This document shows, piece by piece, positions 10,160 to 10,194 of a DNA stretch of 15,092 nucleotides. The position numbers and the translations under genes were made by a program. The number at the start of each line of letters is the position of its first letter. Position 1 is the first letter of the stretch. The stretch is from a virus: UHGV virus genome UHGV-1737584; one strand, given 5' to 3'. Below the pieces are notes generated by a model. It saw nothing but the letters and a program-made list of their open reading frames with translations, ran no database searches and had not been told where the DNA came from.

Positions 10160-10194
10160 CTCGTAGAATCTAGTTTGTTAACAGATTCTACGAG
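10160..10194. promoter_or_regulatory. 35-bp perfect palindrome: 12-bp arms (CTCGTAGAATCT / AGATTCTACGAG) around an 11-nt spacer containing GTTAAC
   Basis: Read directly from sequence, 7-41 nt upstream of the 188-aa gene start. Right arm overlaps the presumed Shine-Dalgarno GAGG on the minus strand. Confidence 0.6.

Follow-up and report, generated by a model that had tools for sequence, protein, structure and literature searches.

The inverted repeat at positions 10160-10194 of the virus genome UHGV-1737584 is likely, though short of certain, to be a promoter-selective translational insulator of the type described for the lysozyme gene e of phage T4. The whole 15,092-nucleotide (nt) stretch of DNA that was analysed is referred to here as the window. 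The repeat directly precedes pmgC, the first gene of a tail operon; its upstream arm contains the -10 element of the late promoter LPsit and its downstream arm contains part of the pmgC Shine-Dalgarno (SD) sequence. RNA entering from the co-oriented cassette upstream (an exported-protein pair here, simABC in P1, other genes in relatives) would contain both arms and would fold into a hairpin of 12 base pairs (bp), plus three more, that buries the pmgC ribosome-binding site (RBS) and leaves pmgC untranslated. Late in infection, Lpa would activate LPsit and the polymerase would start inside the loop. The late mRNA would thus be without the whole 5' arm, and its RBS would be far more accessible.

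The window belongs to a phage or phage-plasmid of the P1/P7 type (Punavirus), with 99.9% identity to several P1-like records and 97-99% identity to P1/P7 in the LPsit region. It carries the P7-type cassette (upf50.0/upf50.5) at the position of simABC in P1, and its homology to P1 itself ends at 10205, just upstream of the repeat. As the genes from 1424 to 11298 all lie on the minus strand, the repeat is to be read on that strand. It lies between the gene for an exported protein of 179 amino acids (aa; 10234..10773, minus strand) and the 188-aa gene pmgC (9587..10153, minus strand), which is the location given in the original prediction.

That prediction described a 35-bp perfect palindrome with a spacer centred on GTTAAC. 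The two arms are indeed perfectly complementary over 12 bp (10160-10171, CTCGTAGAATCT; 10183-10194, AGATTCTACGAG), yet only 24 of the 35 bases belong to the repeat. The remaining 11 nt form the spacer AGTTTGTTAAC, which as a whole is not self-complementary and not palindromic. GTTAAC (10177-10182) is off-centre, at the 3' end of the spacer, and the symmetry centre of the repeat is base 10177. With mismatches allowed, the repeat extends to 18 nt per arm at 89% (10154-10171 versus 10183-10200). Among perfect inverted repeats with a spacer of up to 20 nt it is the longest in the window, and arms of at least 12 bp were reached, anywhere in the window, by one of 200 dinucleotide shuffles.

LPsit is annotated in the GenBank records of P1 (AF234172) and P7 (AF503408) at the position homologous to the repeat. 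Mapped onto the window, its -10 hexamer TAGAAT (10190..10185, minus strand) falls inside the upstream (5') arm, CTCGTAGAATCT on the minus strand (10194..10183), which reads CTCG, TAGAAT and CT. The -22 box of the Lpa type, AAATGACAA (10203..10195, minus strand), as placed by the P1/P7 annotation and by an alignment of the 11 P1 late promoters, adjoins the perfect arm and lies outside it. The loop, GTTAACAAACT on the minus strand (10182..10172), is followed by the downstream (3') arm, AGATTCTACGAG on the minus strand (10171..10160), which consists of an anti-(-10) segment and the first three bases of the SD sequence. The SD sequence itself, GAGG (10162..10159, minus strand), has three of its four bases paired in the hairpin and is separated by 5 nt, TTTCA, from the pmgC ATG (10153..10151). 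From the sigma-70 spacing between -10 and +1 (6-7 nt past the -10) we infer that LPsit starts inside the loop on the minus strand, at A10179 or A10178. Whatever the exact start, RNA made from LPsit would be without the 5' arm because the -10 lies inside that arm, and the hairpin should be formable only by read-through RNA, never by LPsit transcripts. With the -10 located in the upstream arm, the earlier reading that the repeat masks the RBS would become that of a promoter-selective switch.

The sequence of LPsit is that of an Lpa-dependent promoter, a class that needs Lpa (gp10) and the host protein SspA for transcription. A conserved 9-bp inverted repeat is the Lpa site in all 11 P1 late promoters (PMC10695390). 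The elements of this class, namely a 9-bp -22 box (AAGTGACTT, an inverted repeat), 4 nt, a -10 of the form TAnnnT and no -35, are all found at the sequence level in AAATGACAA-ctcg-TAGAAT, in which six of nine box positions agree with AAGTGACTT; the P1 LPsit and LP26 boxes are AAATGACTA. The pattern AARTNACWWN4TAN3T has two matches only in the window, LPs (1907..1889) and LPsit, with 0.07 expected by chance. In a CRISPR interference screen of P1, the genes from pmgC through sit were essential, while knock-down of simA, simB or simC left plating unreduced (PMC10695390); a promoter located between simC and pmgC is thus enough. The P1 GenBank record also holds sigma-70 promoters predicted by the annotators inside and downstream of simC (P1-P3pmgC).

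When all 11 annotated P1 late promoters were aligned on the -10, the common part, aAC-AAGTGACTT-n4-TAnnnT, consisted of the -22 box and the -10. Neither the 4-nt spacer between them (CTCG at LPsit) nor the sequence past the -10 is shared; both differ in every P1 late promoter. The palindrome had been proposed as the binding site of a dimeric regulator, for example a late-gene activator, that might recur ahead of other late operons. A search of the 94.8-kb P1 genome and the window with the half-site CTCGTAGAATC, allowing up to two mismatches, gave no other occurrence at any late promoter, and the total of matches was at or below chance. A site for a regulator shared by late operons, or for the late activator, was rejected after these half-site searches and the 11-promoter alignment, in which the activator element is the adjacent -22 box with the -10 and not the arms. 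Comparison with known P1 late-promoter elements, also suggested at the outset, shows that the -10 is inside an arm and the -22 box adjoins it, while the rest of the arms is specific to LPsit.

In the P7-type sequence the -22 box also belongs to another, smaller inverted repeat, which on the minus strand reads TGTCAcaaaTGACA (window 10196-10209). It forms a 5-bp hairpin in the folded read-through RNA and is missing in P1 itself (gaacAAATGACTA). As P1 is without it, this small repeat is probably incidental.

LPsit is thus already annotated, as a 19-bp promoter only. In the P1/P7 records and the papers searched, no remark was found that the -10 and the promoter spacer complement the RBS region of pmgC, although the 2004 P1 genome paper may hold one. 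The literature searched on LPsit, pmgC and P1 late promoters in connection with a hairpin likewise gave no description. For P1, a hairpin that links LPsit to the pmgC RBS has apparently not yet been described.

Folding was consistent with a masked RBS on read-through RNA, as the original prediction had anticipated for the GAGG. The isolated hairpin has a predicted energy of -17.7 kcal/mol, or -20.0 kcal/mol with its flanking pairs (about -18 to -19 kcal/mol as the overall estimate for read-through RNA), and the 111-nt intergenic RNA one of -35.3 kcal/mol (z = -5.8). In read-through RNAs beginning at 10300, 10240, 10210 or 10194, the G, A and G of the SD sequence are unpaired with a probability of only 0.00-0.02. 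Opening nt -12 to +5 around the AUG is predicted to cost 13.6-15.3 kcal/mol in these RNAs and 6.5-9.7 kcal/mol in RNAs starting at 10179 or 10177. The difference between read-through and late RNA, calculated for the 11 P1 late promoters, was largest at LPsit (8.8 kcal/mol), followed by LP26 (5.0), LP23 (3.1) and LPdar (2.9), with all others at or below 2.5 kcal/mol. Further downstream, the segment CUCGAAGACGUC (window 10120-10132, minus strand) resembles the 5' arm, and its pairing with the 3' arm in late mRNA is predicted at -7.4 kcal/mol; this pairing may tune the translation of pmgC or be fortuitous.

At LPdar of P1 (AF234172 31230..31183, minus strand), CCUCCUG starts 3 nt past the -10 and pairs with UAGGAGG, the SD sequence of lydA. 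The predicted start site lies inside the CCUCCUG arm, and the energy difference is only the 2.9 kcal/mol given above. LPdar/lydA is a possible second instance of the LPsit design, to judge from this complementarity.

The arrangement proposed for LPsit is one established in T4. There, genes such as e, soc, 49 and I-TevI have their RBS covered by a hairpin on long transcripts that come from upstream, and a late promoter in the DNA of the 5' strand of this hairpin gives late transcripts that lack the strand and are translated (PMC3014915, PMC2988022). The gene e leader, like those of soc, 49, I-TevI/II/III, segB and mobE of Aeh1, has its SD sequence and/or AUG masked on long transcripts, a late promoter in 5'-strand DNA, a phage late-gene setting and an arrangement conserved among relatives. 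At LPsit a stable hairpin including the SD sequence was obtained by computed folding, and a late promoter is found in the DNA of the 5' strand at the sequence level. Differences are seen as well. The T4 late promoters (TATAAATA, gp55/gp33) are unrelated to the Lpa-dependent sigma-70 promoters of P1, with their -22 box and -10. Moreover, the upstream RNA in T4 is early or middle lytic, whereas here it comes most likely from cassettes of the plasmid prophage that are expressed in the lysogen, so that the switch would separate lysogeny from lytic growth and not early from late. Mechanisms of this kind are textbook knowledge for T4, where the cases are experimentally proven; their application to LPsit is inferred from sequence.

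Within P1, LPs and LPpac also have a hairpin where an upstream transcription unit meets the late promoter. Both hairpins are rich in GC, stand entirely ahead of the -22 box and involve neither the -10 nor an SD sequence, whereas that of LPsit follows the -22 box and consists of the -10 and the RBS. LPs, the second late promoter of the window (AAGTTACTT-atct-TACAAT, 1907..1889, minus strand), is directly preceded by the GC-rich hairpin CACCCCGTCCGCAGGGCGGGGTG, which follows the stop of gene 16 and has no U tract. This hairpin (window 1889-1932 region) represents a style of insulation by an upstream hairpin, unlike that of LPsit.

The need for insulation at LPsit would arise from read-through. 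In the window the upstream cassette genes are co-oriented with pmgC, and the terminator scan found no terminator-like site from the cassette stop codon (TAG, 10236..10234) to LPsit; read-through from the cassette into pmgC is plausible on this arrangement. Among 12 representative cassettes of relatives, 11 have their LPsit-proximal gene in the same orientation as pmgC. The strength of the hairpin was compared with the upstream context. Where the upstream gene is co-oriented, has no terminator and stops 10-160 nt short of the -22 box (the window, P1, JK004 and the loci L107 and L109), the hairpin has an energy of -18.6 to -20.9 kcal/mol and the read-through-minus-late difference is 8.1 to 12.0 kcal/mol. 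Where a strong intrinsic terminator precedes the promoter, the hairpin is weaker in L104 (-12.0, difference 4.0 kcal/mol) and L106 (-5.3, difference 3.5 kcal/mol), and in L111, L115 and L112 there is no SD-masking hairpin (best local fold -2.4 to -6.4, difference -0.5 to 2.6 kcal/mol). Loci with pmgC immediately behind bplB in a single operon (D6, Serratia, Pantoea, Citrobacter, V. vulnificus, L113 and L114) have neither promoter nor hairpin. In this small sample of clades the pattern is what would be expected of an insulator standing in for a terminator.

Two of the loci with a terminator, L111 and L115 (1440-1470 in each; PmgC 55-59% identity), share a conserved GCGTTACAA-n4-TAGCAT before pmgC and after the strong terminator, with no RBS-masking hairpin. 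By its layout, GCGTTACAA-n4-TAGCAT resembles a late promoter in variant form, its -22 box being a different one.

The same data bear on the alternative that the hairpin is a terminator, an attenuator or another 3'-end element of the upstream cassette, with masking of the RBS incidental. The hairpin lies 40 nt past the cassette stop codon and its stem is followed by GUUUCAAU, which has four U in eight positions. Hairpins can shield 3' ends from exonucleases, and LPs also has a GC-rich hairpin before it. Nevertheless, the GC-rich stem, short loop and U tract of an intrinsic terminator are lacking, since the stem has five G-C pairs out of 12, the loop measures 11 nt and the tail reads GUUUCAAU. 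The site was not called by the terminator scan, and the intrinsic-terminator reading was rejected on these grounds (AT-rich stem, 11-nt loop, poor U tract). In the JK004 clade the tail is poorer still (GUUGGCAU). A 3'-end element would also leave unexplained why the arms are built of a -10 and an SD sequence and why the strength of the hairpin tracks the absence of a true terminator. This alternative is therefore unlikely, although the hairpin might, as a secondary effect compatible with a translational insulator, also protect cassette RNA at its 3' end. The original suggestion of a transcriptional insulator between the moron-like pair and the tail operon was right as to the boundary position and, in spirit, as to insulation; the evidence favours a translational block, perhaps with Rho-dependent polarity in its wake, over an intrinsic terminator.

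Conservation of the repeat was assessed in 80 IMG/VR loci of the P1 clade (PmgC at least 97% identity) and about 50 metagenome loci. The hairpin is present in all of them, and the 11 core bases of each arm are invariant. Variation was seen at five of 13 loop positions, two of the five positions between the SD sequence and the ATG, and the last two positions of the -22 box. At least seven unrelated upstream cassettes meet the conserved DNA at ...ACAAATGAC. These cassettes (L005-L084, L085, L093, L102 and L107-L110) dock within about 10 nt of the -22 box, nearly all co-oriented with pmgC, and mostly encode proteins with signal peptides, namely SimC, the DUF5384 protein with a TraT-like lipoprotein, a YfjT-like protein (PF27224) and others. 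The region upstream of LPsit appears to be a hot spot for genes of accessory or exclusion function. A role of the palindrome as a recombination junction of the cassettes was considered and set aside, as homology breaks off at the edge of the -22 box, about 10 nt before the arms are reached. A simpler explanation is that the break marks the limit of functional constraint and that cassettes are swapped through homologous flanks.

A further alternative is that the repeat has no function of its own and that its complementarity is a by-product of the constraints on -10 and SD sequence, or the remnant of a past duplication-inversion. About 10 of the 24 arm bases are already constrained by the -10 hexamer and GAGG, and arms that do not vary within the P1 clade show no covariation there. 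Against this stands the invariance of the anti-(-10) ATTCTA and the anti-SD CTCG, for which there is no other known constraint, next to a loop and a spacer that vary. In the other 10 late promoters the promoter spacer varies freely, such a repeat arose anywhere in the window in one of 200 shuffles, as stated above, and compensatory and wobble changes are seen across clades. A repeat devoid of function is improbable for these reasons.

These changes were identified in diverged clades, which were found through phage and plasmid records and protein homologues; a scan of genome contigs gave six loci only, and the metagenome scan about 50 further P1-type loci with no new arm variants. In the clade of JK004, Salmonella and Enterobacter (PmgC about 75% identity to the window), the arms CTCGTAAAATCGG and CCGATTTTACGAG form 13 bp around a loop of 8 nt that differs from that of the window in length and sequence. 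L109 (PmgC 78% identity) has 14-bp arms and a 6-nt loop. In L107 from Klebsiella aerogenes (PmgC 75% identity), the 3' arm ATTTTGCGAG produces one U·G pair, again with a loop of 8 nt.

The 11 core pairs hold as standard pairs throughout an alignment of 17 distinct variants (17 of 17), which represent more than 130 loci. At the changing pair inside the -10, 12 variants have G:C and five have A:U (TAGAAT/ATTCTA versus TAAAAT/ATTTTA), and another core pair is U:A in 16 and U·G in one. Three upper-stem pairs switch identity between clades (U-A; G-C G-C; plus A-U) with pairing kept. Overall, 90% of the cells were paired, compared with 31-49% when the partner column was slid by 1-3 positions, and the observed covariation score was reached by none of 500 column shuffles. 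L104 and L106 were left out of the formal pair count for their different arm register. Both nevertheless repeat the covariation from G:C to A:U, L104 (68%) with TAGAAT...TTCTGAGG and TTCTGA and L106 (64%) with TAAAAT...TTTTGAGG and TTTTGA. They have other outer arms (GAC.../...GUC), and the -10 is still paired with the region around GAGG. On the aligned sequences, the change in the 3' arm is explicable only by pairing with the -10, and the U·G variant would fit an RNA of the sense strand and not a DNA palindrome or an antisense RNA.

The covariation also has to be weighed against a DNA operator, at which a dimeric phage or host protein would bind the palindrome and repress or activate LPsit through its -10. 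The perfect 12-bp inverted repeat does overlap the -10, and both half-sites change jointly between clades (TAGAAT/ATTCTA to TAAAAT/ATTTTA), as for a symmetric site. The P1 C1 operator is 17 bp long and asymmetric, and the repeat has no resemblance to it. The spacer of 11, 13, 8 and 6 nt across clades would re-phase the half-sites of a protein, a change that RNA stems tolerate. The upper-stem extensions diverge in sequence with pairing kept, and one variant would be a T·G mismatch in DNA while it is a valid U·G pair in RNA. In addition, no second copy of the half-site was found in P1 or the window with two mismatches allowed, and the known late-promoter element is the adjacent -22 box (PMC10695390). 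Taken together, an operator is quite improbable.

A hairpin within the late mRNA itself, opened by a late factor or serving as a thermosensor-like control of pmgC translation, is the least credible explanation, since, despite a stable stem that masks the RBS and the precedent of Com/mom-like translational activator systems in phage Mu, it needs a late start site upstream of the conserved, annotated -10 inside the arm, with no candidate factor or alternative promoter seen upstream, where the cassettes of relatives differ wholly while the hairpin is constant.

Some observations weigh against an insulator of the gene e type as well. LPsit is apparently a sequence-based annotation. The predicted late RNA is not fully open, with 6.5-9.7 kcal/mol left, as the 3' arm pairs weakly with pmgC codons 8-11 (CUCGAAGACGUC). 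Independent covariation events are few, perhaps two or three; a symmetric change of half-sites is also expected of a DNA palindrome, and RNA and DNA are told apart by the single U·G variant only. L104 retains a moderate hairpin (-12 kcal/mol) despite the terminator upstream. Finally, only pmgC is masked by the hairpin. The next gene, tub, has a strong SD sequence of its own (GAGGGGG), and silencing of the whole operon would therefore depend on a further step, for which Rho is the candidate.

The first approximately 120 nt of the pmgC RNA are C-rich and G-poor (C/G 2.0 and 1.6). This leader, when untranslated, could load Rho, and the transcript would then probably end before tub and sit. The accessory genes upstream are probably expressed in the prophage, and the hairpin would keep pmgC silent on RNA from this source. 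It is possible, if rather doubtful, that the LPsit hairpin is a general docking insulator, which would make incoming transcripts untranslatable and probably Rho-terminated. P1-like plasmid prophages might in this way take up and exchange unrelated, terminator-less cassettes expressed in the lysogen, directly upstream of an essential late operon, and the design may recur, for example at LPdar/lydA. A docking insulator of this kind, if true, would be a use of the T4 principle in the choice between lysogeny and lysis and a determinant of moron landing sites.

As a phage, P1 is both a long-standing model and a tool in wide use, and phage-plasmids of the P1-like kind are now seen as frequent carriers of accessory and resistance genes among the Enterobacteriaceae. 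A promoter-selective insulator at LPsit, if true, would explain how a variable cassette expressed in the lysogen (sim, the DUF5384/lipoprotein pair, YfjT-like genes and others) can abut the essential tail operon with no terminator and no leakage in the prophage. It would also provide, beyond the T4 family, a simple and testable case of a single stretch of DNA that serves as a -10 element in DNA and as an anti-SD in RNA. For the engineering of P1 vectors and phagemids, it would mean that no pmgC translation is to be expected from inserts placed ahead of LPsit and that changing the LPsit -10 also changes the hairpin.

The operon behind LPsit (tail and morphogenesis, approximately 8 kb) has the order pmgC-tub-pmgB-sit-pmgA-bplA-16. 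Its first product, PmgC (188 aa; tubA in P7), is 97-100% identical to that of P1, P7 and SJ46 and has no Pfam match. The accessory cassette upstream occupies 10234..11298 on the minus strand. Its 179-aa product (10234..10773, minus strand) is an upf50.0-like DUF5384 protein (PF17358, 3e-43), and the second gene (10777..11298, minus strand) encodes an upf50.5-like lipoprotein with a weak TraT-like match.

Another arrangement ahead of pmgC is found in a distant P1-like plasmid of Vibrio sp. THAF191d (L095, 1430-1503). Its bplB and pmgC homologue are separated by an inserted higBA toxin-antitoxin pair of the opposite strand, and a 7-bp GC hairpin, GCCGCTCaacttgGAGCGGC, covers the GGAG SD sequence just ahead of the ATG. 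V. vulnificus p48/10 has no higBA insertion, and its bplB and pmgC overlap.

An Rfam scan of the whole window at gathering thresholds gave only the C4 antisense RNA and its a1b1 target, and nothing at the palindrome. Both immI elements are on the plus strand, the c4-a1b1 target and the C4 RNA (RF03163, 54.6 bits, and RF01695, 69.6 bits) at 11657-11709 and 11778-11863, respectively. These family matches confirm that the immunity region lies beside the accessory cassette. Two other inverted repeats of the window are perfect over 11 bp with a 4-nt loop. One, AAACCTGCCAGCAAACTGGCAGGTTT (13183-13208), is just past the stop of an ant1-like open reading frame of 347 aa (12129..13172), and the other, GAAACTATGCAGAATTGCATAGTTTC (13562-13587), lies within the kilA-like open reading frame 13337..14137.

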